NCBI GenBank assembly: GCA_964518565.1 | Contig: CAZFGX010000001.1 | Span: 460,470 to 524,469, forward strand | Direction: 5' to 3' | Length of the DNA stretch: 64,000 nucleotides | Source: an uncultured Gammaproteobacteria bacterium | GTDB lineage: Bacteria > Patescibacteriota > Microgenomatia > CAZETR01 > Amesbacteraceae | In this document: positions 13,286-30,506 of the stretch, piece after piece | Layout of the letters: the number at the start of each line of letters is the position of its first letter | Position numbering within the stretch: the stretch's first letter is position 1 | The notes under the pieces: model-generated | The model's input: only the letters and a program-made list of their open reading frames with translations | The model's database searches: none | What the model was told of the DNA's origin: nothing | Program-made: the position numbers and the translations under genes

Positions 13286-13315
13286 AATAGCTTCGATCGC
13301 GTATAATAGGATCAG

Positions 13316-13441
13316 ATCACTTAACAATTTGCCCCTGTAGCTCAATAGCGACCGAGTCTGCGAGGGAGATATACCTGGAGACCCTCGCGCACAAGCGACG
13401 AGGAAGAGGTCGCCAGGTATGGATCAGATATTTAACAATTT
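13316..13441 (+). repeat. partial 5' duplication of tRNA-Arg (10 nt of upstream sequence plus tRNA nt 1-16) interrupted in the D-loop by an 83-nt structured insert, then tRNA nt 17-24
   Basis: ttaacaatttgcccctgtagctcaat occurs twice (13321- and 13432-); the insert contains hairpin gcgaggg...ccctcgc and an outer gcgacc/ggtcgc stem. Confidence 0.7.
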
Positions 13442-13514
13442 GCCCCTGTAGCTCAATGGATCAGAGCGTCGGTCTTCGGAACCGTAGATGAGGGTTCGAT
13501 TCCTTCCAGGGGCA
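13442..13514 (+). tRNA. tRNA-Arg (anticodon read as TCG)
   Basis: Acceptor gcccctg/caggggc, anticodon loop ctTCGga, T-loop ttcgatt; no CCA encoded. Confidence 0.7.
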
Positions 13515-13543
13515 CAGATTTGTCTTATCACGATAAATAGATT

Positions 13544-13918
13544 ATGGCTGTAATAAAGCTAAAAAGACTGTTTATATTAATCAGTCTCGTGATTATTATT
13601 TTTATATCTGCTCTAGCAGGGCTAATTTGGTATTCGGTTTACTCAGACGGGCCACAAAGCTGGAATCCCTGGATTAATGTATACGATGCACAGTCCTGCC
13701 ATGAAAAAATGGGGAATGCTCAGTGCAACATAAAAAATTGGGGCGAAACACAAGAAGTCTCGCTAGAAAATACATTGCAAAAAAATCTTGGTTCGTCAGT
13801 TACCGTACAAGATATAATTTGTGAGGATCACTCGCGAACATCAGACAAGGTTTCTTTAATTTCTTTACATTCAAAAGTTAAATTTGGTCATGTTTACCAT
13901 TGCTGGTTTAAAAGTTAA
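13544..13918 (+). CDS. small membrane-anchored Cys-containing hypothetical protein
   Basis: N-terminal TM LFILISLVIIIFISALAGLIWY; 124 aa. Confidence 0.35.
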   Translation: MAVIKLKRLFILISLVIIIFISALAGLIWYSVYSDGPQSWNPWINVYDAQSCHEKMGNAQCNIKNWGETQEVSLENTLQKNLGSSVTVQDIICEDHSRTSDKVSLISLHSKVKFGHVYHCWFKS

Positions 13919-13936
13919 TGCTGCTAAAATAGCAAT

Positions 13937-14677
13937 GTGCCTATCTCTCTCCGAGCCAATCTGTTAAAAGCAGAAGTCGCTCAGGTATACAAAACTCTTA
14001 TACACGAAGGCGTCGAAATTCAGCCGGTCTCTTGGTATGCCTCAGCCTTTATAGTACACAACAAATCCACCTCCGAACTCACTCAGCTCCAAAGTTACAA
14101 AGACGGCCTGTTTTATATTCAAAATCTGTCCAGTATGTTACCAGTTCTTGCGCTCGATCCTCAGCCAGAGGAAAAAATACTCGATTTATGTGCTGCTCCC
14201 GGTAGTAAAACCACGCAAATTGCTTCAGAAACATTTGGTAAATCATTGATCACAGCTGTAGATATTAGTCGAGATCGTCTGTACAAACTCAAAGCAATTC
14301 TAGAAAAACAGAATGTCACCAATGTGCAAATACTAAATACTCCTGGCGAATTTTTGTGGAAAAAATATCCAGATTATTTTGACAAAGTCTTAGTCGATGC
14401 ACCGTGTAGTATGGAACAGGGGGATGGGACTCAAGAAAAGCGCGCCAAAATCCTAGCTCAAAAACAAAAATATCTGCTCCGCTCCGCTGTGTCCTGTTGT
14501 CGGCCTGGAGGGACAATCATATACTCTACCTGCAGTATTACCAGAGTAGAGAACGAAGAAAATATCGACTGGATATTGTCCAAAGAACCGGATAAAGTCA
14601 TTTGTGAATACGCCGTCCGTGTTTGGCCAGACGAACTTGCGGAAGGATTTTTCTTGGCCAAGCTTATTCGAAAATAA
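13937..14677 (+). CDS. rRNA cytosine-C5 methyltransferase, NOL1/NOP2/Sun (RsmB/RsmF) family
   Basis: ILDLCAAPGSKTTQIA (SAM binding), VLVDAPCS, TIIYSTCSI. Confidence 0.8.
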   Translation: MPISLRANLLKAEVAQVYKTLIHEGVEIQPVSWYASAFIVHNKSTSELTQLQSYKDGLFYIQNLSSMLPVLALDPQPEEKILDLCAAPGSKTTQIASETFGKSLITAVDISRDRLYKLKAILEKQNVTNVQILNTPGEFLWKKYPDYFDKVLVDAPCSMEQGDGTQEKRAKILAQKQKYLLRSAVSCCRPGGTIIYSTCSITRVENEENIDWILSKEPDKVICEYAVRVWPDELAEGFFLAKLIRK

Positions 14678-14679
14678 AA

Positions 14680-15825
14680 ATGAAAAAATATTTGCTTATT
14701 GGTCTGGGAATTATTTTAATTTTGTTGGGATTGCGAATCTATAAAACGTACAAAGGCTTTGCGCCCATACTCTCAAACTCACCCACAAAACCAATAGATA
14801 ATACTCCACAAAACACCACAGGCCTGCCACTCACAATAGTCCCAGGTTACAAAATATCTCTGTTTGCCACAAATTTGGGCAACCCACGAGACTTACAATG
14901 GGATCCTCAGGGAGTGCTTTTGGCTTCAATACCAGACCAAGGCCGAGTAGTCGCGCTGCCAGATGAAAACAAAGATGGCCAAGCAGACAAACCAGTTACA
15001 GTAGTATTTGGCCTGCACAAACCTCACGGACTAGCCTTTGCCAAAAATACTTTATATATTGGCGAAACGGATAAGGTGGTGAAATATGAATATGACGGCA
15101 AATTGTTTAAAGCCAACAAGCCACAAAAAATTCTGGATTTACCTGGCGGTGGAAATCATTGGACTAGACAACTACTCATAAAAGACAACCAGTTATTTAT
15201 CGCAATTGGATCTAGCTGTAATGTCTGCAAAGAGACTGATACTCGTCGTGCAACGGTTCAAGTAGCCAATTTAGACGGTACCAACCTTCACACTTTTGCC
15301 TCTGGACTCAGAAATTCACCCTTTTTAATAGAAAATCCCTACACCAAGGATATTTGGGCTACGGAAATGGGCAGAGATAATCTTGGCGACGACACACCGC
15401 CAGACGAAATAAATATCCTTAAAGCAGACAAAAACTATGGCTGGCCGATTTGCTATGGTCAAAATATTCATGACCAAAATTTTGATAAAAATACCTATAT
15501 TCAAAACCCCTGTAGTCAAACCCTACAGGCTACGGTAGATCTACCAGCTCACTCAGCACCTTTAGGCCTGGCCTTCGCATCAAAAGATACACTTCTGGTA
15601 GCTTTTCATGGTTCTTGGAATAGAAGCGTCCCAACAGGCTACAAAATCGTTTCCATCGATATAAAAACCAAACAAATTTCAGATTTTGTCACTGGCTGGC
15701 TGGTATCTCCAAAAAATGCCATTGGTCGACCGGTAGATTTATTGTTTGACTCACAAAAGAATTTATATGTCTCAGATGACAAATCCGGAAATATCTACAA
15801 GATCACTCCACTTTCGCCCCAATAA
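14680..15825 (+). CDS. secreted beta-propeller sugar dehydrogenase-like protein (sorbosone/glucose dehydrogenase family)
   Basis: N-terminal TM/signal, HGLAF, repeated propeller blades, C-terminal NLYVSDDKSGNIYKI. Confidence 0.55.
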   Translation: MKKYLLIGLGIILILLGLRIYKTYKGFAPILSNSPTKPIDNTPQNTTGLPLTIVPGYKISLFATNLGNPRDLQWDPQGVLLASIPDQGRVVALPDENKDGQADKPVTVVFGLHKPHGLAFAKNTLYIGETDKVVKYEYDGKLFKANKPQKILDLPGGGNHWTRQLLIKDNQLFIAIGSSCNVCKETDTRRATVQVANLDGTNLHTFASGLRNSPFLIENPYTKDIWATEMGRDNLGDDTPPDEINILKADKNYGWPICYGQNIHDQNFDKNTYIQNPCSQTLQATVDLPAHSAPLGLAFASKDTLLVAFHGSWNRSVPTGYKIVSIDIKTKQISDFVTGWLVSPKNAIGRPVDLLFDSQKNLYVSDDKSGNIYKITPLSPQ

Positions 15826-16096
15826 AGTCCAAGTATGGCAAGACCTTTTTAACTTCAGCTCTAAATTTTTCTGCCAGACCTGCAGAATATTTTGCCTTGC
15901 CACCTGACTCCATTTTGGAACACAGTTTACGCTCTGCGTCTTCCACGGCACGTAAAATTGGTCTTCCTAGACGGTTAAATTCTTCTTGTACTGTAATCTG
16001 ATCTTTCCCGTATAAATCATGGATGGGTTTAAATGCATCAAAATCCTGCTTATGTAAAGAGATCAATTCTTCGACTGCTTTTTTGTATAAAGTCAT
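15803..16096 (-). CDS. hypothetical small protein
   Basis: 97-aa ORF downstream of the vWA gene on the same strand. Confidence 0.3.
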   Translation of the reverse strand: MTLYKKAVEELISLHKQDFDAFKPIHDLYGKDQITVQEEFNRLGRPILRAVEDAERKLCSKMESGGKAKYSAGLAEKFRAEVKKVLPYLDFIGAKVE

Positions 16097-16097
16097 A

Positions 16098-17321
16098 TTA
16101 TTGTAAAAACCGTTTAAAATTCAATTTTGCGCTGGTGGCGCTAGTAATAGACGTCTCTATTACATCAGAGAATACATTTGCCAATGAATAAGAGTCAGGA
16201 GCAGTATACGTCTTCTTGACAAAGATTTTGTCCCCATTTAATACGGTATTTAACATTTGAATAGTTTTATCATAAATATACTGACTATTCGGTACATAAT
16301 CTTCTGGTCGAGGAGCCATCAAAACCGCATAAGAGTCTACTTCATCGGGTTTTTGTCCAAAGCGAGCTGAACCTTGATTAATCTGCCATGTACCAGGAGA
16401 CCACTGATAGGTTTGTGGTGCCAGACTGCATGCCAAATAATTCAAAGCTTGGTTACTGCAACCACCATTGTTTTCATCCAAACTACAATCAGACGTCCCA
16501 CAATTGGCATTCGTCAAAGCAGTATTTGGTAAACCGTCTGTGATAAGTACAAAAATCTTTTTTACCATTGGAGAAACACTATAGTAGCCGTCAGCTACCA
16601 TTCCCGGAGCTCCTAAATTCGTACCTGCACCATTTTGTGCCACAGGTGGTAATAAATTTGGCGAATCGCAAATCCAGGCATCGTCCTGGGTGTACCATGT
16701 TTGTGCGGTCAATTTATTCAGAGTAGTTTGATGATCGTTTGTTGGATACTGAGTCCAATCAGCCGCTCGCCGGGTCGCAATAATACCCAAATAATATTTA
16801 TCTTTGCTGGTTTGATCTAGATTTGTAATATTTGTCACCAAAGACACAAAGGCTTGTTGGGCACGTGTGATCCGATGTGTGGAGTCGCTAGGGGAGACTG
16901 GATCATTCATAGACGGTGAACAATCAAATCCTACAATAAATTCCACCTTATTAAATTTTTCTAGACTTCCTGAAATAAGTTCAGATTCAACCTTCATATT
17001 ATTAGACGCATATGGCCATTTGGCCAAAAAGGTAATCAGTGTTCCTCCGGGTGTTGCTGTAGTATTTACATCTAGAGTTTTTCCCGCCCCGATATTTTGA
17101 GAATAAGTACCTGGTGTATAGCTAGGATAAAACAACATTTTTGTCACCACATCCACTGTTTCAAATTCAGCTCGATACGACGCGTTGGTCAAATCATAGA
17201 AAGACTGTTTTCGATTAATAGCCAGTAGTAAACGAGACTCCCAGGCTAACAACAAAAAAATCATCACTACTGACACCATAACCACGACAACAAATGAAAC
17301 AATGCCTTTTGTATTTCTCAT
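16098..17321 (-). CDS. pilus-associated von Willebrand factor A (vWA) domain protein with N-terminal TM anchor (module A)
   Basis: MIDAS DxSxS (GFDCSPSMN), VLITDGLPNT, many extracellular Cys; paralog of 20936-22150. Confidence 0.7.
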   Translation of the reverse strand: MRNTKGIVSFVVVVMVSVVMIFLLLAWESRLLLAINRKQSFYDLTNASYRAEFETVDVVTKMLFYPSYTPGTYSQNIGAGKTLDVNTTATPGGTLITFLAKWPYASNNMKVESELISGSLEKFNKVEFIVGFDCSPSMNDPVSPSDSTHRITRAQQAFVSLVTNITNLDQTSKDKYYLGIIATRRAADWTQYPTNDHQTTLNKLTAQTWYTQDDAWICDSPNLLPPVAQNGAGTNLGAPGMVADGYYSVSPMVKKIFVLITDGLPNTALTNANCGTSDCSLDENNGGCSNQALNYLACSLAPQTYQWSPGTWQINQGSARFGQKPDEVDSYAVLMAPRPEDYVPNSQYIYDKTIQMLNTVLNGDKIFVKKTYTAPDSYSLANVFSDVIETSITSATSAKLNFKRFLQ

Positions 17322-17818
17322 AGAGTGACTGCCTGTTTTCGATTAGATACAACAATATCAACAGTATCAGTAGTAGTGGACACATTGCTCCGCATGGTCA
17401 ATGAAATTTTATAGCTTGGATATACAGTGCCATTAGAGTCTACTGCAGTAGTAAACGCAGTAATTTTAAATGCGTTTACCACGACATTTGAACCACTAAT
17501 GGGGGATTCGGTATTGGCTGCAATATCCTTTTTTACCAATACGCCATTGGAAATATAATAAGAAGTTTGGGTATTTATAGTCAGAGTTGCATTACTGTTT
17601 CCATCGCAACTCGTACAAGTAAATGTATTACCCCACTTGATCGCATTTGTTAGTTCTACTGCTGCATCGTTTTTAAATTGTTCTAGAGATTCTTGGTTGA
17701 CTCCTTGAGAATTTTTTGTTGCTGCAGACACAAAAATAAACGTAGATACCGACAAGACAATAGCTGCTAGCCCCATAGACAAAACCAGTTCGATGAGTGT
17801 AAAACCCTTTTGTCTCAT
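17318..17818 (-). CDS. type IV pilin-like (minor pilin/pseudopilin) protein
   Basis: Prepilin N-terminus MRQKGFTLIELVLSMGLAAIVLS; paralog of 22147-22662 (both end ...SNRKQ). Confidence 0.7.
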   Translation of the reverse strand: MRQKGFTLIELVLSMGLAAIVLSVSTFIFVSAATKNSQGVNQESLEQFKNDAAVELTNAIKWGNTFTCTSCDGNSNATLTINTQTSYYISNGVLVKKDIAANTESPISGSNVVVNAFKITAFTTAVDSNGTVYPSYKISLTMRSNVSTTTDTVDIVVSNRKQAVTL

Positions 17819-18339
17819 AAGTTAGAAATAAGTAAAGAGTTACTAATACATTTTGTTTGTTTATTTTCATCCCACTTCACAATTGATGTCAAAACCCTAC
17901 TATGAGTGTCAGCCACATATCCAGAATTGCAAGTTAAAGTAAAACTAGGTTCAGTTACACATGCATCTGTTTGAGCTGGTTTTTGTAGCGTCCCATCATT
18001 AGTATTCCGACACCAAGCAGACACGATCAGTGCTCGGCTATAACGATTTTTTACTAGTTCAGTAGCTCCAGCCGCCAAAGACTGCAGCTGCCAAGCATTT
18101 TGTGGAGAAGACACAGAAGTTACTGTATATCTCCCAGTAGAATAGGCATTCCAGTTCGTCAAAAAAACATTGTAGGCAGATTCCTGTGTTTGTTGCAACA
18201 ACAATGCAGCCTCAGTACCGTATTGTGCTTGTCGATTTCTTACAATCATCAGAGCAATAAGCGGATAGATAGAACTGACTAAAATAGCAATAATCCCAAT
18301 AGAAATCAGTGTATCGATGAGTGTAAATCCTGGTCTCAT
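17815..18339 (-). CDS. type IV pilin-like (minor pilin) protein
   Basis: MRPGFTLIDTLISIGIIAILVSS; paralog of 22659-23186 (shared AYNVFL..W motif). Confidence 0.7.
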   Translation of the reverse strand: MRPGFTLIDTLISIGIIAILVSSIYPLIALMIVRNRQAQYGTEAALLLQQTQESAYNVFLTNWNAYSTGRYTVTSVSSPQNAWQLQSLAAGATELVKNRYSRALIVSAWCRNTNDGTLQKPAQTDACVTEPSFTLTCNSGYVADTHSRVLTSIVKWDENKQTKCISNSLLISNL

Positions 18340-18391
18340 ACCCTATACCATACTAGCACTTTTTGCGTTTGTTGACTAAAATACGCATACT

Positions 18392-18425
18392 GCGGGTATA
18401 GCTCAATGGTAGAGCACCAGTTTTC
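18392..18425 (+). repeat. duplicated 5' portion (nt 1-34, through the anticodon 5' stem and loop start) of tRNA-Gly(TCC)
   Basis: gcgggtatagctcaatggtagagcaccagttttc is identical to the start of the full tRNA at 18745. Confidence 0.8.
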
Positions 18426-18487
18426 TCCGCCAATAGTTTCACAATTTGGCGGATCCGCCTGAATGCAAAGCTTTCGGCGGACAAACT

Positions 18488-18754
18488 ATGTATTACACAT
18501 ACGTACTACATTGTGAGTCTTTAAAAAAGCAAGTTTTTTATACCGGGTATTGTGAAGATCTAAAAAACAGAATAGAAGAACATAAATCTAAAAAAGTACA
18601 GACTACTAAAGTATTTGATAAAATCACTTTGGTCTACTATGAAGCCTGTTTAAATAAAACAGATGCTCGTAAACGAGAAATTCAGTTAAAAACTGGCTTT
18701 GGTAGAGGATATTTGAAAAATAGATTAAAATCCTATTTACAAATGCGGGTATAG
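18488..18754 (+). CDS. GIY-YIG nuclease superfamily protein (UPF0213/YhbQ-like)
   Basis: YTYVLHCES...FYTGYCEDLKNRIEEH...LVYYEA...ARKREIQLK; the last 10 nt overlap the 5' end of tRNA-Gly. Confidence 0.75.
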   Translation: MYYTYVLHCESLKKQVFYTGYCEDLKNRIEEHKSKKVQTTKVFDKITLVYYEACLNKTDARKREIQLKTGFGRGYLKNRLKSYLQMRV

Positions 18755-18818
18755 CTCAATGGTAGAGCACCAGTTTTCCAAACTGGCTACAGGGGTCCGA
18801 TTCCCCTTACCCGCTCCA
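18745..18818 (+). tRNA. tRNA-Gly (anticodon TCC)
   Basis: Acceptor gcgggta/tacccgc, anticodon loop ttTCCaa, CCA encoded. Confidence 0.85.
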
Positions 18819-18847
18819 AGAGTTGCATTAAGGCGTATAGTAAAGAT

Positions 18848-19231
18848 ATGACAGGGTATGTAGCAGATATCGAAAAGTTAACAGAAGAAAACCAAAACTT
18901 TAGACAAGTCTTGTTTACCAGTCAACATGTCCAAGTCGTTGTCATGCACCTTCAGCCAAAAGAGTCTATTGGAGTAGAGGTTCATGAAGTGGTGGACCAA
19001 TTTCTACGCATCGAGCACGGAGAGGGAGTAGTAATAATGAACGATCAAGAACATTCTATTAAATCAGGCTATGCAATAGTTGTGCCTGCCGGCACAAAAC
19101 ACAATGTCATAAACACATCTTCTACCGAGTCGTTGAATCTCTACACAGTCTACTCACCTCCACACCACAAAGATAAGATCATCCACAAAACAAAACAAGC
19201 GAGCCAGTCAGACACGACCGATCATATCTAA
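18848..19231 (+). CDS. cupin domain protein
   Basis: Two-His cupin motifs (HEV...H...G, PAGTKHNVIN). Confidence 0.6.
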   Translation: MTGYVADIEKLTEENQNFRQVLFTSQHVQVVVMHLQPKESIGVEVHEVVDQFLRIEHGEGVVIMNDQEHSIKSGYAIVVPAGTKHNVINTSSTESLNLYTVYSPPHHKDKIIHKTKQASQSDTTDHI

Positions 19232-19234
19232 CTT

Positions 19235-19813
19235 CTAAAATAGTGTCTTAATAAAAGCTAGAAACGTTTGTTTATGATGATAAAACACATATCCATTAAG
19301 AAATAATAGTCCTGGAAATATAAACGCTTTCTCTGCTAGTGCTCCGGTTGTCACTCTCAAACTACGAATAGGTGGAAAGCCCAATTTCCATTGAATAGGA
19401 AACACCCAAGGCACCCCTTCTTTTGTCAGACTATCTGCCACCAAATGAGATAAAAAGCCGATCATAAATGCCCACCATACAACATTCATATCTACTAAAA
19501 TTACGCCCTGCACTTTGATTAATAGCCACCATAGAGCTTTGCCTACGAGCCACATACCCAAGAGTGAATGTGTAATAAACCGATGGCTACCAAACGTAGG
19601 GTGGACTACTCGTCCAAGAATCGATCCCGATCCAGCTGGCATTCGCTGCCAAAGCTCTGAAGAAGGTTCATCTAGATCCGGCGCCAATCCTCCGAGAAAC
19701 AATGCTATCACTCCAGCGATAGCCGTCGCTATACTCATAGCAGGAATTGGGAAGTAGGCAATGGCCAATACACCTAACGTAGCTGCAAACAGATCATGGG
19801 TTCGGGCAGTCAT
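19235..19813 (-). CDS. membrane-bound metal-dependent hydrolase-like protein (DUF457/YdjM-like)
   Basis: Polytopic membrane protein with an N-terminal HD...G pattern resembling YdjM-family proteins. Confidence 0.45.
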   Translation of the reverse strand: MTARTHDLFAATLGVLAIAYFPIPAMSIATAIAGVIALFLGGLAPDLDEPSSELWQRMPAGSGSILGRVVHPTFGSHRFITHSLLGMWLVGKALWWLLIKVQGVILVDMNVVWWAFMIGFLSHLVADSLTKEGVPWVFPIQWKLGFPPIRSLRVTTGALAEKAFIFPGLLFLNGYVFYHHKQTFLAFIKTLF

Positions 19814-19819
19814 GTGAAG

Positions 19820-23186: not shown

Positions 23187-23629
23187 GGACCCACCTCCAC
23201 AATACCCGTTGCGCTGATACGCACCTGAATGGTTTTTGCATTTGGTGCCCGTAAAATAATTGTTTTCGCCGTAGTGTTACCTGTCCCTTTCTCAAACCAG
23301 ATGCTAAACATAGCTCCAGAAAAAACCAGTGGATTTTCTATCGAATATTCAGCCTGATTAGATGGAGACGGATCAGAGCTAGAGGTACGCGAACGGAATC
23401 GGTATGTAGTTGCATCCTGCTGGGTGACACCCCACTCCTTATTATCTTTGGCTTCGCGAGCAAAAATATGTGCCTGTGTCAAAACGTTTTTCAATTTTTC
23501 TGCCGAAGAGTTTAATGCCTGGTTGTTTCGCATTGAAGAGATGACAAAAAAACTTGGCACACTCACAATTCCAACAATTGCAATTACAATCAGTAACTCA
23601 ATGAGGGTCATGGCAGCAGCAAATTTCAT
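23183..23629 (-). CDS. type IV pilin-like protein
   Basis: MKFAAAMTLIELLIVIAIVGIVS, a class III signal-peptide-like N-terminus. Confidence 0.7.
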   Translation of the reverse strand: MKFAAAMTLIELLIVIAIVGIVSVPSFFVISSMRNNQALNSSAEKLKNVLTQAHIFAREAKDNKEWGVTQQDATTYRFRSRTSSSDPSPSNQAEYSIENPLVFSGAMFSIWFEKGTGNTTAKTIILRAPNAKTIQVRISATGIVEVGP

Positions 23630-23638
23630 AAACTAATA

Positions 23639-24106
23639 CTAGCGTATCAAAACTTCAGCTCTGGTGCTAATAATAGGCAAATCTGGCACGATTGTTTTGA
23701 TACTCTCTGCAGGAATAGATACATGATACGTTCCAGGTACATCAGCTACACCCTCAATACTCCCTAGGCGAACTGTACCTGAAAATGCCTGTGAATACAT
23801 GAGTGTACTAGAAGTCAAAGAAATAGCTGGGTCAGCCTTAATTGTGCCTGACACTTGCGGAATAATCCCATACTTATCTTTATATTGACCCATGATATAA
23901 AAATGAAACTTTTGCCCAGGCGCAGCAACTACTGCTGGTGGATCAAACCAGATCCGTAATTTACCTGCTTCTTCGTCTGCTTTTACAAAAAAAGGTAGAT
24001 CACCTTTATTTAATACTCCTGCAATCAAGACCGGTAAAAACGCCGCAATTCCCACTACACCAAAAAACATGCTTTTCGCTTTTGATTCAGCCCGAAACAT
24101 ATCCAT
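23639..24106 (-). CDS. membrane-anchored hypothetical protein (first gene of pilin/vWA module B)
   Basis: N-terminal TM FFGVVGIAAFLPVLIAGVL; 155 aa. Confidence 0.4.
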   Translation of the reverse strand: MDMFRAESKAKSMFFGVVGIAAFLPVLIAGVLNKGDLPFFVKADEEAGKLRIWFDPPAVVAAPGQKFHFYIMGQYKDKYGIIPQVSGTIKADPAISLTSSTLMYSQAFSGTVRLGSIEGVADVPGTYHVSIPAESIKTIVPDLPIISTRAEVLIR

Positions 24107-24147
24107 ACCGTATATAGTTATACAGTATTTTTAGCCCTCAAAACTAG

Positions 24148-24222
24148 TCGGGGATAGAGGACTCGAACCTCCGACCTCACGCTCCCAAAGCGCGCGCTCT
24201 AAGCCAACTGAGCTAATCCCCG
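24148..24222 (-). tRNA. tRNA-Pro (anticodon TGG)
   Basis: Minus-strand cloverleaf cggggat...atccccg, anticodon loop ttTGGga. Confidence 0.8.
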
Positions 24223-24244
24223 GCAAGACAAATTTTACTACAAA

Positions 24245-24622
24245 TTACAATTGCGCGTATAAATCCACTTGATAACCGTCTGGATCAGCCACCACAGCAT
24301 ATCGCTGACCCCAAAACGCATCCCATGGCGATTTGACTACAGTATAGCCAAATTCAGCTACTTGAGCTGCAATACGGTCTACTTCTGTAGCAGAGTCGTA
24401 TTGAATGGCAAAATGTGAATGGTTTCCCGGTTTTGGATCTTGGCCTATCAAAGACTCTACCAAATTCCGACTATCAATCATCAATCGTGCCGCACCCGAA
24501 TTGGTCGCCTCGACGTGCTGTTCATCGGTTGCAAGTTGGGGAAATTCAAATCCCAATACTCGATAAAACGCTACCGTCTTGGCCATATCCGACGCACACA
24601 CTCCTACAGCATTTAGATTCAT
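24245..24622 (-). CDS. VOC/glyoxalase family protein
   Basis: FYRVLGFEF... VOC fold; 125 aa. Confidence 0.6.
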   Translation of the reverse strand: MNLNAVGVCASDMAKTVAFYRVLGFEFPQLATDEQHVEATNSGAARLMIDSRNLVESLIGQDPKPGNHSHFAIQYDSATEVDRIAAQVAEFGYTVVKSPWDAFWGQRYAVVADPDGYQVDLYAQL

Positions 24623-24630
24623 AATCTCAG

Positions 24631-24701
24631 AGCGGGTGAGGAGAATCGAACTCCCGCATCCTCCTTGGCAAGGAGGTGTTCTACCATTGAACTACACCCG
24701 C
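24631..24701 (-). tRNA. tRNA-Gly (anticodon GCC)
   Basis: gcgggtgtagttcaatggtagaacacctccttGCCaaggagg...; acceptor gcgggtg/cacccgc. Confidence 0.85.
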
Positions 24702-24752
24702 AGGTCGGCTTATTTTACACGAGTCTGTTTCCGCGATAAAGTACAAGCACTG

Positions 24753-26189
24753 ATGAGCTGGAAATTGTTAGGTTTTTTTGTGCTTGGTTTACTCATTCGT
24801 TTTCTCTATTTTCCCAACGATATTTCATTTATTTACGACCAGGCCAGAGATGCATATGCCGCTCAAGAGCTGCTTCATGCAAACCTAAAAATAGTCGGTC
24901 CACCCACCGCTATTCCTGGCTTGTACCACGGCAGTCTTTTTTATTATCTACATGCACCGCTATTATTAGTCTCTCACGGTAATCCAGAATTTATCTCCGC
25001 GTGTATGCGGCTCTACAATGCATTGGGGATAATTCTTATATTTTTTGTAGCCAAAAAGATTTTCGACTGGCGCACAGGACTTATTTCCTCTCTAATATTT
25101 ACCACCTCCTTCGAACAAACCCAATTTGCTATGTTTCTTGGCCACCCTGCATTTGCTGTTCTGTCTGTATTGGGCTTTTATTATGGTCTCGCTATCTCCC
25201 TACCATTGGCTGCATTTTGTTTGGGCATGGCAATCCAATTTCACTTTGCCATGATCAGCCTCATACCTGTGTTTCTTATTTGGCTCATCTTTCATCGCCA
25301 GACATACTCAAGGAAAATATATCTTCAGACACTTCTTGCCGCTGTTATATCGCTGAGCACTTTTATTCTCGCCGAATTCAAATTTCATTTTCGTACACTA
25401 AAAACACTCTCCACCTTAGCTCATACATCATCTGGTCAAGGGCTTCACATATCAAATTTATTTCACATTTTCGTTCGTTATATCCAAGACAATCTAGCGA
25501 CTACATCAATAATTGTTTACCTAGTAGCCATTGTGTTACTTTTTGCCTTTGCATATACGAGAAAAAAGATCTTAATTTTGTGGCTATTAGCAGGTCTAGT
25601 GCCGTACGTGTTCGATCATTCATCTATCCCTATTTACTATTACACGATTGGCGGTTCATTGAGTGTAATTATTATGTCTGCCTATCTGATCAATAAACTT
25701 CCTCAAATTGCTCGAACTTTAATCCTATTTTTCATCATCTATACAAACCTGATCCACATCACTCAAACAAATAGAATTGGCGTCATGCCAGAAATTACGG
25801 TCCAATCTGGCATGCTACTTTCAGATCAAAAACAGCTCATTGATGCTGCGTACCAGCAAAGCGATGGTCAACCATTTGCGATAAATGCTGTCACAATTCC
25901 ATATCAAATAAATACTACGTGGAGCTATCTATTTGAATGGTATGGTAAATCAAAGTATGGATATCTACCAATCTGGTCCAGTGAAACAGCAATAGGCTAT
26001 GCAGGCAATCTACCACTTCAAACAAACAGATCACTCCTACCAGCAAAACGCTTTACCATTATCGAGCCAGATAGGGGACTAGACTCTCGACTAAAAAAGC
26101 AATATCTAGAAAAAGAAAATATTTTTACGACAGTAGTTTCAGAAAAAAAAATCGGCCGCCTGACACTCCAGATCAGGGAAAAGAAATAA
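24753..26189 (+). CDS. polytopic membrane protein, possible GT-C fold glycosyltransferase (ArnT/PMT-like)
   Basis: About 11 TM segments, N-terminal loop with D/E-rich FIYDQARDAYAA; the ORF-track start at 24579 overlaps tRNA-Gly, so the start is placed at ATG 24753. Confidence 0.45.
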   Translation: MSWKLLGFFVLGLLIRFLYFPNDISFIYDQARDAYAAQELLHANLKIVGPPTAIPGLYHGSLFYYLHAPLLLVSHGNPEFISACMRLYNALGIILIFFVAKKIFDWRTGLISSLIFTTSFEQTQFAMFLGHPAFAVLSVLGFYYGLAISLPLAAFCLGMAIQFHFAMISLIPVFLIWLIFHRQTYSRKIYLQTLLAAVISLSTFILAEFKFHFRTLKTLSTLAHTSSGQGLHISNLFHIFVRYIQDNLATTSIIVYLVAIVLLFAFAYTRKKILILWLLAGLVPYVFDHSSIPIYYYTIGGSLSVIIMSAYLINKLPQIARTLILFFIIYTNLIHITQTNRIGVMPEITVQSGMLLSDQKQLIDAAYQQSDGQPFAINAVTIPYQINTTWSYLFEWYGKSKYGYLPIWSSETAIGYAGNLPLQTNRSLLPAKRFTIIEPDRGLDSRLKKQYLEKENIFTTVVSEKKIGRLTLQIREKK

Positions 26190-26287
26190 GAATACGAACT
26201 ACTTTTGACACTGAGTGTATATTTATAAAGTTGGCACATTAAAACGAAACAAGTAAGAGAAAATGCAGTAAAAAAAGGAAACTAGAA

Positions 26288-26521
26288 ATGGCGAATAATC
26301 AACAAATTTCGCTTGAAGGGGAACTAATAACCTTTGGCGATTGTGAAGATCCGGATTACGAAGGGTGTAGTTTTGTGTCGATCGGTACAAGTTATAACCA
26401 TACGACCTTTATTGTAGATAATGAGGAGGCAACTATAGAGCAAATATACTCACGAGGAACAGACAGACAAGCGTGGGGTTTGATAGCAATAGCTATTACA
26501 ACTGGATATTGGGACGACTAA
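26288..26521 (+). CDS. hypothetical small protein
   Basis: 77-aa ORF followed by a strong terminator. Confidence 0.3.
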   Translation: MANNQQISLEGELITFGDCEDPDYEGCSFVSIGTSYNHTTFIVDNEEATIEQIYSRGTDRQAWGLIAIAITTGYWDD

Positions 26522-26541
26522 AACAAAAAATGTGCCACACT

Positions 26542-26575
26542 GCTCTCCGCCAAAAAAGCGGAGAGCAACTTTTTA
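26542..26575. terminator. rho-independent terminator (possibly bidirectional)
   Basis: gctctccgc-caaaaaa-gcggagagc hairpin followed by a T-run. Confidence 0.55.
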
Positions 26576-26911
26576 TATTTCAAACAAATAAAATCTCAAA
26601 TCAAACCGATGAACAGTGGATTGGTCTTTTTGATCAGGAAAAATAAGGGCATGTTTCACTCCAATTGCTGTTTTTAACTGTTTCTCCCAATCAAACTTTT
26701 TTGAATTCCACCAGAAATCATGTAGTAAATCACTTTCAGCATTAACTAACAAAAATAATCCTTGATTTGTTTCAATTATTTCTCGCTGCATCTCGATATG
26801 TTTCGAGTTGTAGATGAGTGTGACTGGTTCAAGATGGTATGCTTTACCCATCAATCCAATTGAATAACTATCGAGAACCGATTGAATTTGTGTATTAGTT
26901 AAAGCTTGCAT
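26573..26911 (-). CDS. hypothetical protein (trimmed from the ORF-track call to avoid two tRNA genes)
   Basis: The longer 178-aa reading overlaps tRNA-Leu(TAA) and tRNA-Leu(GAG); the first ATG clear of them is 26911. Confidence 0.3.
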   Translation of the reverse strand: MQALTNTQIQSVLDSYSIGLMGKAYHLEPVTLIYNSKHIEMQREIIETNQGLFLLVNAESDLLHDFWWNSKKFDWEKQLKTAIGVKHALIFPDQKDQSTVHRFDLRFYLFEI

Positions 26912-26912
26912 G

Positions 26913-26997
26913 TGCCGGGGGCGAGACTCGAACTCGCACGCAGTGTTAGCTGCGCGGGCTCTTAAGGCCCGTGTGTCTACCATTCCACCACCTCGGC
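26913..26997 (-). tRNA. tRNA-Leu (anticodon TAA)
   Basis: Long variable arm, anticodon loop ctTAAga; acceptor has one mismatch. Confidence 0.8.
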
Positions 26998-27026
26998 TTG
27001 GTATAATTCGGATTATATATCGGAAT

Positions 27027-27108
27027 GGGCCGGTGGTGAAACTGGTATACACGTACGCTTGAGGTGCGTATGCCGCAAGGTGTGGAGGTTCGAGTCCTCT
27101 CCGGCCCA
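27027..27108 (+). tRNA. tRNA-Leu (anticodon GAG)
   Basis: gggccggtggtgaaactgg..., anticodon loop ttGAGgt, long variable arm. Confidence 0.8.
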
Positions 27109-27167
27109 CACAACTTCCTCACGATTTTCCAAAGCACGTAAACAATTTGTAAAGGAGTGTTATAGAT

Positions 27168-27665
27168 ATGAAACAGGCAACAGATAATGTATGGTCAAAA
27201 GTAGTCACAGACCCTTCGTACGGCCAAATGTCAAAGAGAACTCAAGCAGCCACAAAGCCCTACATCAATCGACTTCCGGAAGTTCTAGCTCCAGTAAAGG
27301 ATGATCCATTTTCCTACAAATCACTCATAAACGCCAAGCTGTTGTTTCTCCAGTTTTCACTCAGTAGCGGCATGCTCGATGCTCATGTAAAAACCCTAAC
27401 CAAGGCCGAGTTGGGATTTTTTACACAACAAGGAGTGATTGAAGTGATTAAGGGCACACTCACTGATTTACTAGACAGATATGCGTCTACTGCTCGTGAT
27501 TTTGAAGAAATGCTCAAATCAAGTGGCATAACAGAACGCGACATGATCCTGTCTCCAGCTTTAGGCCTCGTCCCCGAAGCCAAAGCCTTATACCTCAAAG
27601 GTGAACTAACAATCGGCAAGCTGATCGAGATTCAGCCCATTCTGATTGTGAAAAACACCAAGTAG
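27168..27665 (+). CDS. hypothetical protein
   Basis: 165-aa ORF followed by a canonical terminator. Confidence 0.4.
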   Translation: MKQATDNVWSKVVTDPSYGQMSKRTQAATKPYINRLPEVLAPVKDDPFSYKSLINAKLLFLQFSLSSGMLDAHVKTLTKAELGFFTQQGVIEVIKGTLTDLLDRYASTARDFEEMLKSSGITERDMILSPALGLVPEAKALYLKGELTIGKLIEIQPILIVKNTK

Positions 27666-27677
27666 TTTTCAATCCCT

Positions 27678-27707
27678 GCGCCGGCTAAAACCGGCGCATT
27701 TTTTTTT
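27678..27707 (+). terminator. rho-independent terminator
   Basis: gcgccgg-ctaaaa-ccggcgc followed by T9. Confidence 0.7.
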
Positions 27708-27738
27708 GGTATATAATTACATGTAGTTCAAGTAGTTC

Positions 27739-27821
27739 GGGCCGGTGGTGAAACTGGCATACACGTACGCTTCAGGTGCGTATGCCCAAAAGGCGTGGAG
27801 GTTCGACTCCTCTCCGGCCCA
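27739..27821 (+). tRNA. tRNA-Leu (anticodon CAG)
   Basis: Near-identical backbone to tRNA-Leu(GAG); anticodon loop ttCAGgt. Confidence 0.8.
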
Positions 27822-27840
27822 CCGAAACCTTTTACAATTT

Positions 27841-27914
27841 GGACGATTAGCTCAGCTGGCTAGAGCATCGCTTTTACACAGCGGGGGTCGGGGGTTCAAG
27901 TCCCTCATCGTCCA
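27841..27914 (+). tRNA. tRNA-Val (anticodon TAC)
   Basis: ggacgattagctcagctggctagagc...; anticodon loop ttTACac. Confidence 0.8.
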
Positions 27915-27978
27915 CACATTTGACTACAAACTTCAAGGGCTTTTTTTGTTTAATGATATAATTTTTTTGCCACAACAA

Positions 27979-28054
27979 GCCGAGTTAGCCAAGGTGGTCA
28001 CGGCGGGCGCCTGAAGAGCGTCAAATGGGGGTTCGACTCCCTCACTCGGCACCA
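27979..28054 (+). tRNA. tRNA-Phe (anticodon GAA)
   Basis: 76 nt with CCA; acceptor gccgagt/actcggc perfect; anticodon loop ctGAAga; T-loop ttcgact; one extra D-arm nucleotide. Confidence 0.65.
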
Positions 28055-28059
28055 AACCA

Positions 28060-28641
28060 ATGTACAAAGCCATCTGGACTGCAATATTTGTCATCGGAGC
28101 GCCTGCGTTGATAGGAATAAGTCTATTTGCCCTCTCCACTTTTAGTCCCGTAATTCGGCCTATACCTACTGTATTAGGATCTAGCACCCAAGAAGTCGAT
28201 CAAACACCTAGCCAAATTTTGTCTGCCATTTCTGCCTCAGTCACCACTGCCGATGCCCGAGAATTAATTATTTCTCAATATTTGACCAAATACAATTCGC
28301 CACTAGTTCCATACGCCAAAAACATTGTCGACATTTCTGATCAATATAGTTTAGATTTTCGTCTATTAGTCGCCATAGCTCAGCAAGAATCCAATCTGTG
28401 TAAAAGAATTCCCGAAAATTCTCACAATTGTTGGGGCTTTGGCATTTATGGGGACAAGGTTACCCGGTTCGACAATTATCCCCAGGCTTTTGCTACGGTC
28501 GCCAAAACGCTCAAGCGTGATTACATAGACAAAGGCTTAGATACCCCCGAAGAAATCATGCGTAAATACACCCCTCCATCCATCAAACTCGGTGGACCGT
28601 GGGCCAAGGGTGTAAATCAATTTTTATCTGATTTAGAGTAG
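28060..28641 (+). CDS. membrane-anchored secreted protein, possibly lysozyme-like/transglycosylase-like
   Basis: N-terminal TM; AIAQQESNL resembles the catalytic E-S motif of SLT-type lytic transglycosylases. Confidence 0.35.
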   Translation: MYKAIWTAIFVIGAPALIGISLFALSTFSPVIRPIPTVLGSSTQEVDQTPSQILSAISASVTTADARELIISQYLTKYNSPLVPYAKNIVDISDQYSLDFRLLVAIAQQESNLCKRIPENSHNCWGFGIYGDKVTRFDNYPQAFATVAKTLKRDYIDKGLDTPEEIMRKYTPPSIKLGGPWAKGVNQFLSDLE

Positions 28642-28650
28642 AATAGAGTC

Positions 28651-29400
28651 ATGTCAGTCGCACATTACGATGATCCAGAATTTTCCTACGAAAAATATTG
28701 GCACAATCGTGCCTACGAACACGCAGCCGAAGAAATAGCACTAACAAAACTCCTCAAAGGCAAAAAATTTACAAATGCCGTAGATATCGGTGGGGGATAT
28801 GGCCGTTTGTCTACTGTTCTACAACGATATGCCAACCATGTAACATTGGTCGAACCCTCTCAAAAACAGCGCACAATAGCCAAACGTTTTCTAAAAGATT
28901 TTCCTCAAATCACTATTAAGTCAGGCCTTTCAGACAAAACTCAACTAGAAGACAATTCTCAGGACTTAGCCATGATGGTTCGGGTCACCCATCATTTACC
29001 CGACCTCAAGCCCACTTTGGCTGAACTGTCTCGTGTTCTCAAGCCCAAAGGGCTACTTATTTTAGAGGTTGCCAATTCTCGCCATTTCAAAGCCTGGATA
29101 AAAAGTTTGGCCACAGGTCAACCTATTTTGCCTATGCCCGTAGAGCGTCGCAGTAGCGCCAATATTCGCAAAAATACTATTGCATTTGTAAACCATCATC
29201 CTGGTACAGTCTCTAAACTTTTAGCTCAATCTGGCTTCAAAATATCTCGATCATTATCGGTATCTAATTTTCGTTCACCTCAATTAAAAAAATTCCTACC
29301 AAAATCAATCCTACTAAACCTGGAGTCCGCTACCCAAACCCCCTTAGCCAGAATAAACTTTGGTCCCAGTATCTTTCTTTTGTGTCACAAGTCTACCTAA
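28651..29400 (+). CDS. class I SAM-dependent methyltransferase
   Basis: AVDIGGGYGRLS (motif I), LAMMVRVTHHLPD. Confidence 0.75.
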   Translation: MSVAHYDDPEFSYEKYWHNRAYEHAAEEIALTKLLKGKKFTNAVDIGGGYGRLSTVLQRYANHVTLVEPSQKQRTIAKRFLKDFPQITIKSGLSDKTQLEDNSQDLAMMVRVTHHLPDLKPTLAELSRVLKPKGLLILEVANSRHFKAWIKSLATGQPILPMPVERRSSANIRKNTIAFVNHHPGTVSKLLAQSGFKISRSLSVSNFRSPQLKKFLPKSILLNLESATQTPLARINFGPSIFLLCHKST

Positions 29401-29414
29401 TAACAAGGCTCAAA

Positions 29415-29443
29415 TTGACAAACCAAACACCCCATAGTACAAT
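29415..29443 (+). promoter_or_regulatory. near-consensus sigma70-type promoter (TTGACA-17 nt-TACAAT)
   Basis: ttgaca aaccaaacaccccatag tacaat. Confidence 0.45.
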
Positions 29444-29449
29444 ATATGT

Positions 29450-29526
29450 AGGTTTCGTGGCTTGGGCTAAAACCCAGGCTGTGGGATTTTAAAGCCTCGA
29501 CATTGGGCAGGAGTCGGGGCTTTTTT
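29450..29526 (+). ncRNA. candidate small RNA of about 75 nt, between the consensus promoter and a hairpin plus T6 terminator
   Basis: Internal hairpin cttgggctaaaacccagg and terminator gcctcgac...gtcggggc tttttt; no ORF. Confidence 0.3.
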
Positions 29527-29534
29527 AGTTGTAT

Positions 29535-30092
29535 TCAATCTTCATATCCCATATTTTCTTCATCTGGATCTGTCAAAATTTTGCTTCGAGTAGATCTCTT
29601 AGGTAAACGGACAGCGCGAGGTCTATCCCAAGGTGCATCAGAAACTACAACCTTGTCTTCTTTAGTTATGTGTGGTCCGGGTTTTAAAACGTAATCCAAA
29701 TGTGTCGAAAATGCTTGAATTTGTTTTTGCCGCTGCATCCTCAATACACCCAACCCACCTCGTTGTTCGGTGGACTCACTAGTCAAATATTCATTTACAA
29801 TTTGGTCATTGTCCTTATGAAGCTTCGCCAATGTTTGCCTACATTCAACTTCAGAAATTTTCGGAGAAAGAGCTACAGACCATGGTAATTCCGATTTGTG
29901 TTCCAGTTGTCTACCCAAACAATACGCCTTTGCCAAAGCCGAATATAAATAGTTGCGATAGACTGTCCGCATGATTTTTTTCTCATGTGGTTTATTTAAC
30001 ATTTGTCGTAAATTGTCTACCTCTTTCCATTGATCACTTAATTCATGCCTAAGCCGCACTTCTTCAGACTCTGGGGCAACCGAAACCTCCAT
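29535..30092 (-). CDS. hypothetical protein
   Basis: 185-aa charged ORF. Confidence 0.4.
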   Translation of the reverse strand: MEVSVAPESEEVRLRHELSDQWKEVDNLRQMLNKPHEKKIMRTVYRNYLYSALAKAYCLGRQLEHKSELPWSVALSPKISEVECRQTLAKLHKDNDQIVNEYLTSESTEQRGGLGVLRMQRQKQIQAFSTHLDYVLKPGPHITKEDKVVVSDAPWDRPRAVRLPKRSTRSKILTDPDEENMGYED

Positions 30093-30127
30093 TAAAAAAC
30101 TATAACATATGAGATAATACTAATATT

Positions 30128-30413
30128 GGGCTGGTGGTGAAATTGGTATACACGCAGGTTTTATAACGAGCGAAGTACAACGAAGCGAGATATATGAAAG
30201 GATCCAAGAGCGAATGCGATTGGGAGGTTTCCTTTCATATGAACCTGTGGGAAAATAGGCTGGTAAATCTGGGCTGGTGGTGAAATTGGTATACACGCAG
30301 GTTTTATAACGAGCGAAGTACAACGAAGCGAGATATATGAAAGGATCCAAGAGCGAATGCGATTGGGAGGTTTCCTTTCATATGAACCTGTGGGAAAATA
30401 GGCTGGTAAATCT
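30128..30413 (+). repeat. two perfect tandem 143-nt repeats; each is tRNA-Leu(TAG) nt 1-35, then a 74-nt structured insert, then the anticodon 3' stem, then 22 nt of non-tRNA sequence
   Basis: Units 30128-30270 and 30271-30413 are identical; the insert contains a 12-bp perfect stem catatgaaagga/tcctttcatatg. Confidence 0.85.
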
Positions 30414-30496
30414 GGGCTGGTGGTGAAATTGGTATACACGCAGGTTTTAGGAACCTGTCTCCAAAAGAGGTGGAGGTTCGAGTCCTCTCCAGCCCA
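30414..30496 (+). tRNA. tRNA-Leu (anticodon TAG)
   Basis: gggctggtggtgaaattggtatacacgcaggttTAGgaacctg...; long variable arm. Confidence 0.8.
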
Positions 30497-30506
30497 CAAA
30501 AAAAAC

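Follow-up and report, generated by a model that had tools for sequence, protein, structure and literature searches.

A GIY-YIG nuclease and hairpin cassette at a tRNA-Gly gene of Patescibacteria, and interrupted 5' tRNA copies at two further tRNA genes

Introduction

SegB, a GIY-YIG endonuclease of the T4/T6 tRNA cluster, cuts in tRNA genes, and its action yields, by homologous recombination, tandem units of tRNA and nuclease gene that are joined at a microhomology that the tRNA's 5' end shares with the 3' end of the nuclease gene (PMC2330249, PMC13096335). It is the nearest experimentally known counterpart of the arrangement described here, in which a 5' tRNA fragment, a pair of hairpins and a GIY-YIG nuclease gene precede an intact tRNA-Gly(TCC) gene in a stretch of Patescibacteria DNA of 64,000 nucleotides (nt) (assembly GCA_964518565.1, contig CAZFGX010000001.1, positions 460,470 to 524,469 of the forward strand; "the window" denotes the whole of this stretch), with interrupted 5' tRNA copies also at its tRNA-Arg(TCG) and tRNA-Leu(TAG) genes. 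As with SegB, the GIY-YIG gene lies directly beside tRNA genes. Unlike SegB, which is a phage protein with DNA-binding domains, the window protein is a chromosomally encoded, bare UPF0213/Slx1-like domain of 88 amino acids (aa); it matches no PHROG and is always accompanied by a conserved hairpin module inside a tRNA fragment.

In fungal mitochondria, free-standing GIY-YIG or LAGLIDADG open reading frames (ORFs) are accompanied by a partial duplication of the host gene, for example of the C-terminal part of atp6 or cob (PMC6279837). The likeness lies in the combination of a nuclease insertion with a partial host-gene copy, one intact copy being left; the fungal cases concern protein genes and 3' duplications, whereas the window shows tRNA genes, a 5' duplication and a hairpin module. 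The rRNA genes of the Candidate Phyla Radiation (CPR) contain insertion sequences that are not introns and encode GIY-YIG proteins, as well as short insertions without an ORF (PMC11270868). Phylum, nuclease superfamily and the choice of a structural RNA gene are the same as here, and neither group I nor group II introns are involved. However, rRNA can tolerate excised intervening sequences whereas the tRNA of the window stays intact through a second copy. Position 35/36 is given as a site of group I introns in a recent survey of Patescibacteria tRNA introns, which is silent on the tRNA cassette (PMC13011429). These introns occupy the identical anticodon position in the same phylum, but the inserts of the window have no group I core, are one fifth of the size, lack a 3' exon and are followed by an intact tRNA.

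Two further systems bear on the hairpins. In collaborative homing, reportedly described by Zeng, Bonocora and Shub in 2009, a free-standing endonuclease acts together with an ORF-less intron located at its cleavage site. The window nuclease gene likewise lies beside, and not inside, a short insertion in a conserved target, and this insertion could give immunity; unlike in collaborative homing, the insertion of the window family is a palindromic hairpin pair of 56-70 nt and not a self-splicing intron, and it interrupts a dead fragment that is adjoined by the uninterrupted tRNA. REP/RAYT units and the PATEs of IS200/IS605 are palindromic mobile units that are scattered in many copies per genome and have a dedicated enzyme, an HUH transposase. 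The hairpins described below share with them the form of short imperfect palindromes, the nesting in each other's loops and presence or absence at orthologous sites. They differ in that one module is found in the 64-kb window and none in 693 kb of unselected Patescibacteria loci, in that the linked enzyme is a GIY-YIG nuclease and not an HUH transposase, and in that the sites are tRNA loops. Literature searches returned no description of the tRNA cassette, which is apparently undescribed. It can be counted among the free-standing endonuclease cassettes with partial gene duplication, with a fair chance that the unit of nuclease and palindrome is more unusual than that.

Results

The tRNA-Gly(TCC) locus

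The window contains 12 tRNA genes (ARAGORN and Rfam), and three of the 12, tRNA-Arg(TCG), tRNA-Gly(TCC) and tRNA-Leu(TAG), are preceded by exact copies of their own 5' part, in agreement with the original prediction. Direct repeats of at least 22 nt within 800 nt were found only at these three loci and at the paralogous tRNA-Leu(GAG) and tRNA-Leu(CAG) genes; no locus outside tRNA genes has such a local repeat anywhere in the 64 kb. When unselected Patescibacteria loci and the window are taken together, an upstream 5' copy is seen for five out of 41 tRNAs, three of these five being those of the window. The most complete arrangement is found at tRNA-Gly(TCC), where the following features were assigned:

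18392..18425, + strand: tRNA-Gly(TCC) 5' fragment, raw nt 1-34, ending after the second anticodon base (canonical 35)
18426..18453, unstranded: hairpin H1 (TCCGCC...GGCGGA) of the conserved palindromic pair (alignment A3, covariation, model R1)
18454..18481, unstranded: hairpin H2, built like the reverse complement of H1 (alignment, model R1, folding)
18482..18487, + strand: CAAACT, the resumed tRNA-Gly copy (canonical nt 36-41; 6 exact, gap to ATG 0)
18488..18754, + strand: gene for an 88-aa stand-alone GIY-YIG nuclease (Pfam PF01541, E 1.9e-10; 940 homologues; UPF0213 matches in PDB)
18745..18818, + strand: intact tRNA-Gly(TCC) (ARAGORN/Rfam, 71.4 bits)

The repeat comprises 35 exact nt (18391-18425 = 18744-18778). 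The hairpin pair, 56 nt long and two-fold symmetric, is placed precisely between anticodon bases 2 and 3, and the last 10 nt of the nuclease gene lie inside the tRNA gene, its stop codon TAG being U8-A9-G10 of the tRNA. The breaks had been predicted in the anticodon loop after nt 34-35 for Gly and Leu; the loop is correct, the position becoming canonical 35/36 in both. The Gly copy, which had been thought not to resume after its insert, does so with the CAAACT that directly precedes the ATG. The locus is a complete member of a widespread Patescibacteria cassette of nuclease, hairpins and tRNA.

Only the catalytic domain is present in the nuclease, PF01541 covering residues 1-72 of 88, and this match, which bears out the predicted GIY-YIG ORF, is shared by all 28 aligned relatives. 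The catalytic residues are conserved in alignment A1, Y5, Y18, R28 and E64 without exception and H32 to at least 90%. At E <= 1e-5 the protein has 940 relatives, nearly all of them from Patescibacteria, and the protein profile detects one GIY-YIG only in the window. Searched against PDB, profile A1 matched 1zg2 (E 5.7e-5) and 1ywl (E 0.0035) and nothing else; the solved relatives are thus UPF0213 proteins only, to which no function has been assigned. The length of 88 aa and these structural matches place the protein among the UPF0213/prokaryotic Slx1-like proteins, which are ~90-110 aa long, consist of the catalytic domain alone and are related to BH0048/EF2693. No NCBIfam model matched it. 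A 2006 survey of the GIY-YIG superfamily grouped such prokaryotic proteins with Slx1 and noted one fusion to a TrmH-like tRNA methylase (PMC1564403). More distant relatives (loci L134-L170) have no adjoining tRNA and carry a conserved motif, TTTACCCCGTTAGAGAT, directly 5' of the ATG (e.g. L144 1470-1500), with a nearby inverted copy in addition at L153 and L167; it seems to be a cis element of another kind, linked to the nuclease.

Cassette loci across Patescibacteria

The DNA around ~90 of the GIY-YIG relatives was retrieved, and 174 loci (numbered with the prefix L) were retrieved in total. About 40 other Patescibacteria loci are built like the Gly cassette of the window, in the order 5' tRNA fragment, hairpin pair, a few resumed bases, GIY-YIG gene and intact tRNA. 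In nearly all of the ~45 closest loci the ORF enters the tRNA gene by 9-20 nt, usually stopping on the TAG of U8-A9-G10, so that the C-termini of the proteins (MRV, LRV, NAGIV) are encoded by tRNA 5' ends; the 5' tRNA fragment and hairpins lie 50-100 nt before the ATG. The tRNAs are mostly Gly (CCC, TCC or GCC), and Arg, Val and Ile also occur.

Junctions were analysed by searching for the best precise excision of the hairpin module. In ~20 loci, the window included, the module sits exactly between anticodon bases 2 and 3 (raw 34/35, canonical 35/36), followed by 4-7 exact resumed tRNA bases, while in others it lies in the D arm (9/10, 12/13, 19-22) with 6-16 resumed bases. Resumption, as seen at Arg and Leu below, is thus a general trait of such loci. 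Whatever the position of the break, the repeat starts at tRNA nt 1. A fixed-length target-site duplication was rejected for the nuclease cassettes because of this constant start; it is possible for Arg and for a tRNA-Pro locus, L051, described below.

A 3' tRNA remnant is found directly downstream of the intact tRNA at L100, L104, L110, L113, L121, L125/127 and L126. At L100, L110, L113, L121, L125 and L126 the acceptor strand of this remnant is complementary to the upstream fragment, not to the intact tRNA, whereas the remnant of L104 fits neither. From this pairing it follows that a different, resident tRNA has been split and that the cassette carries a second, intact tRNA of its own. Over 34 nt, ~10 loci show no difference between fragment and downstream tRNA, and at least nine show strong divergence.

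Single hairpin units vary in their presence. A 39-nt hairpin unit nested in the H1 loop is present in L115 and absent from L116, and a 32-nt unit in the D loop of the fragment is present in L117 and absent from L119, the loci of each pair being otherwise orthologous. Cassettes that are 70-79% identical have unrelated flanks in L095/L107 and L122/L143 and conserved synteny in L005/L104. An empty site for the whole cassette was not seen among the cassette loci compared.

Several single loci show variants. L128 (90-360) has a whole tRNA-Ile(GAT) inside the anticodon loop (~37/38) of a tRNA fragment that resembles tRNA-Lys and bears the hairpin pair in its D loop; the GIY-YIG ORF of this locus comes after the 3' remnant and does not stand before a tRNA. 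The cassette of L093 abuts the 3' end of a tRNA-Pro. In the last 60 nt of L110, the T loop of the resident tRNA-Gly 3' remnant contains a structured insertion of 34 nt (GGGTTCGA[...]TTCCCC).

The hairpin module

One or two conserved hairpins (YCCGCC...GGCGGR) stand upstream of the ATG in the ~45 closest loci. Alignment of the cassette loci predicts 21 base pairs for the hairpin pair, 11 of them with compensatory changes, and since H2 is built like the reverse complement of H1, the module is two-fold symmetric. The stems contain almost only Watson-Crick pairs with almost no G-U pairs, and the folding energy shows no strand bias. The match of the covariance model R1 to the Gly module of the window scores 79.1 bits on the + strand and 68.8 bits on the - strand. 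The Watson-Crick stems and equal folding on both strands suggest a palindrome at the DNA level more than a structured RNA. For the same reasons, the hairpin pair is not favoured as an element that functions at the RNA level.

Model R1 found exactly one copy in the 64-kb window, at Gly, none in the 693 kb of unselected Patescibacteria loci, and at least one match in nearly every cassette locus. As the matches are confined to cassette loci, the module is linked to the nuclease gene rather than dispersed as a repeat. The coding region around 15035-15135 gave one weak R1 match and one weak nhmmer match, which look fortuitous.

The H1 loop of L115 (1395-1435) contains a second hairpin type, CCCGCCTGCAACG...GCATTGCGGGCAGG, which occurs also upstream of more distant GIY-YIG genes (L096, L134, L171), and several related palindrome families seem to exist. 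In L100 (1833-1945), two hairpin modules flank the unit of ORF and tRNA; their H1 is identical and their H2 differs by compensatory changes, a pattern that two alleles would be expected to leave after crossing over at the H1/H2 boundary.

The tRNA-Arg(TCG) and tRNA-Leu(TAG) loci

At tRNA-Arg(TCG) the layout is as follows:

13302..13307, + strand: likely -10 box TATAAT of the tRNA-Arg promoter (read from the sequence; not called by a strict consensus scan)
13309..13330, + strand: leader copy 1, consisting of GGATCAGA, T, CAC and TTAACAATTT (the first 8 nt equal tRNA-Arg nt 17-24)
13331..13346, + strand: tRNA-Arg(TCG) 5' fragment, nt 1-16, broken in the D loop
13347..13420, + strand: Arg insert, 74 nt, strongly structured, with alternative pairings (-32.6 kcal/mol, z -4.2)
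13421..13428, + strand: GGATCAGA, the resumed tRNA-Arg copy (nt 17-24), also the start of leader copy 2
13429..13441, + strand: leader copy 2 (TATTTAACAATTT)
13442..13515, + strand: intact tRNA-Arg(TCG) (ARAGORN/Rfam, 68.9 bits)

The exact repeat, 13321-13346 = 13432-13457, is 26 nt long and comprises 10 nt of leader and tRNA nt 1-16, which agrees with the predicted D-loop break at nt 16/17 and the inclusion of about 10 nt of upstream sequence; it widens to 37 nt with three mismatches. As this repeat carries the species-specific leader, a local duplication is indicated and not an imported tRNA part. TATAAT precedes the first leader copy only, the second copy reading GGTATG there; for other window tRNAs, a TATAAT/TAAAAT box stands at a distance of 10-25 nt upstream. 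No Rfam family matched the insert. The locus is identical, base for base (100%), in an independent Logan assembly of another sample (L173, SRR16481187).

At tRNA-Leu(TAG) the unit is present twice:

30128..30270, + strand: Leu unit 1, consisting of tRNA-Leu(TAG) nt 1-36 (30128-30163), a 77-nt insert (30164-30240), the resumed GAACCTGT (30241-30248) and a 22-nt spacer (30249-30270)
30271..30413, + strand: Leu unit 2, 100% identical to unit 1
30414..30497, + strand: intact tRNA-Leu(TAG) (ARAGORN/Rfam, 56.5 bits)

The locus is therefore a perfect tandem duplication of a 143-nt unit followed by the intact tRNA, and the insert lies at canonical 35/36, between anticodon bases 2 and 3, like the Gly module. 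Arg and Leu share a topology of precise insert, 8-nt resumption and intact tRNA, the predicted resumption being GGATCAGA in the one and GAACCTGT, with one G lost, in the other. The predicted hairpin-rich nature of the inserts also holds, as all three fold better than shuffled sequence (z = -4.2, -3.5 and -4.7, the first being that of Arg). At all three loci the ends of short-read contigs fall inside the repeated tRNA parts, as expected of true repeats, and the repeats are therefore taken as real. A 31-codon ORF (30195-30290) starts in the Leu insert and ends with TGA in the next tRNA 5' copy, as the GIY-YIG ORFs end inside tRNAs; without a Shine-Dalgarno sequence or homology, it is probably due to chance.

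Several origins of these two inserts were tried and rejected. They do not form one family, as they share only GAGATATA and a pattern search in all loci found nothing. A decayed nuclease gene in the units was dismissed on the basis of an nhmmer DNA-profile search, and a derivation from the tRNA's own 3' part because local alignments were no better than those of shuffled sequences.

Comparable arrangements occur elsewhere. In L051, from Doudnabacteria, a 45-nt repeat (26 nt of leader and tRNA-Pro nt 1-19) surrounds an unrelated 84-nt insert. A Patescibacteria tRNA-Ile(TAT) (L031 260-500, minus strand) has its own 5' fragment (nt 1-27) 40 nt upstream and its own 3' fragment (~nt 38-76) 42 nt downstream, and neither an ORF nor a hairpin module is present. 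The phylum thus shows repeated events of this kind at which no nuclease gene is found, and Arg and Leu may, on a weaker inference than the homing-like reading of Gly, be relatives that lack the nuclease, or relics, of such an event.

Genomic context

The window is chromosomal Patescibacteria (CPR) DNA with ordinary cellular genes, among them tRNA synthetases, CdaA, DinB, an RsmB-like methylase and pilin-like proteins. The next-best protein relatives of its genes are from Patescibacteria and share 46-49% identity (a neighbouring protein 46%, CdaA 49%, RsmB 48%), so that the lineage is isolated in databases. Rfam searches of the whole window (gathering score) and of each locus (E up to 10) gave only tRNAs and one weak tRNA-like match on the Gly fragment; promoter and terminator scans of the window were uninformative. 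Further tRNA-Leu genes lie at 26912-27109 and 27739-27823. Those for tRNA-Leu(TAA) and tRNA-Leu(GAG) stand head to head, 29 nt apart. The tRNA-Leu(GAG) and tRNA-Leu(CAG) genes are paralogues of 94-96% identity; besides a few other positions, it is the first anticodon base that distinguishes them, which looks like an anticodon switch.

Discussion

The reading to which we give about an even chance is that the three loci are tRNA genes with a homing-like insertion cassette in their 5' half, an intact tRNA being kept downstream, and that Arg and Leu are versions without the nuclease. A homing-like cassette is favoured because of the analogues in the literature, namely SegB, the fungal mitochondrial ORFs and the CPR rRNA insertions. 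What is observed is the anatomy of the cassette and how often it recurs, together with a resident tRNA that has been split and hairpins that are polymorphic; how the cassette moves is proposed from these observations. At Gly, the nuclease would start a homing-like recombination with the conserved tRNA sequence as the homology arm, and the cell would be kept alive because the cassette carries or regenerates a tRNA. The hairpin pair may be the cis site of the nuclease, bound or cleaved by it, or alternatively, in the manner of collaborative homing, an insertion that protects the fragment from being cut, and the tRNA promoter upstream of the fragment could drive the nuclease gene and the tRNA as one transcript. 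Arg and Leu, with their precise structured insert, eight resumed bases and intact tRNA, would be non-autonomous versions or relics, and the Leu unit may have been doubled later by unequal recombination between the 36-nt repeats.

Several points weigh against this homing-like reading. Both cleavage by the nuclease and its target are predictions from sequence. As the main difficulty, the intact tRNA keeps the sequence of the fragment around 35/36, being identical in the window over 34 + 6 nt, so that an enzyme able to cleave the uninterrupted tRNA gene would be expected to cleave the copy of its own host as well, whereas with homing endonucleases of the Seg and I-TevI type the allele that bears the element is immune. 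No empty site for the whole cassette was found, the nearest relatives of the genome having 46-49% protein identity. The 88-aa protein lacks the DNA-binding domains of characterised GIY-YIG homing enzymes such as Seg and I-TevI, none of the PHROG phage families matched it, and relatives of cassette or nuclease were not found in viral contigs, no vector being known; carriage by phage was accordingly rejected. Arg and Leu contribute further difficulties. Their inserts are not significantly similar (163 of 2000 shuffles score as well), model R1 matches neither of them, no other copy of either occurs in the window or in the 174 retrieved loci, and a DNA profile built from 40 cassette ORFs, run with nhmmer, detected no relic of a nuclease gene in the units. 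Finally, 21 nt of the Arg repeat are local leader, and the 8-nt microhomology GGATCAGA, at the leader start and at tRNA nt 17-24, could alone account for a slippage duplication. The original prediction had proposed for the three loci a family of mini-elements with a defined loop of tRNA genes as their target, which supply or restore a complete tRNA. For Gly, with its ~40 related loci, this view is supported; the idea that the three inserts align as one family did not survive, as R1 matches Gly only. The other proposal of the original prediction, an unusual process of tRNA gene duplication and repair, may hold for Arg and Leu.

Part of the data would be fitted equally well by a transposon-like action of the nuclease on the palindromic module, or by integration of an excised circle via tRNA homology. 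In a related proposal, which we regard as possible and hold tentatively, the GIY-YIG gene, hairpin pair and tRNA form an undescribed, self-contained "tRNA gene replacement" element, and the Arg and Leu inserts belong to further, unrelated families with the same landing pad. The bare nuclease domain would then be a structure- or site-specific nuclease acting on the palindromic module, hairpin units as well as the whole cassette would be moved into precise tRNA positions (anticodon 35/36 and D arm), and the element would pay for the damage with its own tRNA. In this case, the 5' halves of tRNA genes would be a general hot spot for small insertions in the phylum.

The same loci, mainly Arg and Leu, can also be explained with no mobile element at all, as relics of local duplication of the promoter-proximal tRNA part by slippage or microhomology break repair, the insert being filler or a later insertion into the copy, where it does no harm, and the Leu unit having been expanded by unequal crossing-over. 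This explanation accommodates the species-specific leader in the Arg repeat and the presence of GGATCAGA at both of its sites, the L051 locus with 26 nt of leader in its repeat and an unrelated insert, the 100% identical tandem units at Leu, and the single-copy state of both inserts in the window and the 174 loci. It does not lead one to expect, however, that the pattern affects three of the 12 window tRNAs and no locus outside tRNA genes, that the insert stands exactly at the end of the duplicated tRNA part with exactly 8 nt resumed at both Arg and Leu, that the Leu position 35/36 is that of the nuclease cassette family, or that the inserts are, unlike random filler, far more structured than shuffled sequence. 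We consider it rather unlikely as the overall account; for Arg and Leu, a purely local duplication is a serious rival of the homing-like reading. An artefact of assembly, with repeats expanded or collapsed, would be suggested by the Leu copy number, as the two units come from one assembly only and short-read contigs break there, but its probability is negligible: the Arg locus was reproduced exactly in an independent assembly from another sample, which disposes of the artefact that had been named as a possible refutation, contigs end exactly inside the repeated tRNA parts, and the same architecture is found in dozens of unrelated assemblies.

Other alternatives assign the broken copies a role in the tRNA transcript or in integration. 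The broken copy and its insert might be a functional 5' leader, which could act in processing or regulation or form a small RNA that joins a tRNA 5' half to a structured domain. Since only the upstream Arg copy has a good -10 box, the intact tRNA-Arg is probably transcribed through fragment and insert; the mutually exclusive pairings of the Arg insert are attenuator-like, and its sequence is identical in the second sample (L173). Yet even at E up to 10 there is no Rfam match, the window and the 174 loci show no conservation beyond this genome, a terminator-like T run is absent, and the Watson-Crick, strand-symmetric Gly-type module suggests a function as DNA, which together make the leader improbable. 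The inserts could instead be tRNA introns, of group I or another type, the partial copies being 5' exons of intron-containing or split tRNA genes, and the Gly and Leu inserts are indeed exactly at the 35/36 position of the Patescibacteria group I introns (PMC13011429). With inserts of 56-77 nt, far below group I size and without a group I core, this is highly improbable: comparison with the Rfam intron and other models, a check proposed at the outset, matched no intron family, either at gathering score or at E up to 10, the copies end 6-8 nt past the insert and have neither a T arm nor a 3' acceptor strand, so that the 3' exon is missing, and no splicing is needed because a complete, uninterrupted tRNA follows. 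Attachment-site scars of integrase-type islands are a very remote alternative. Although tRNA genes are classic integration sites, and some tyrosine integrases are said to use anticodon-loop crossovers (Williams 2002), no integrase or recombinase was found among the 20 neighbouring proteins scanned, the duplicated tRNA part is the 5' and not the 3' one, the inserted DNA measures only 74-320 nt, and the hairpin module is inside the fragment and not at the boundary of an island.

For annotation, the consequences are tRNA fragments, short-read assemblies that break at tRNA genes and nuclease ORFs that end inside tRNAs. That the 35/36 position is common to these cassettes and to the group I introns of the phylum hints at a common vulnerability or a common enzyme specificity. 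Patescibacteria have tiny genomes and usually single-copy tRNA genes, yet harbour selfish-looking DNA inside them. Should the cassette be mobile, it would provide the first biological context for stand-alone UPF0213/Slx1-like GIY-YIG proteins, and it would show that a nuclease gene can invade an essential and highly conserved RNA gene with no need of an intron, provided that it brings the tRNA along or restores it.

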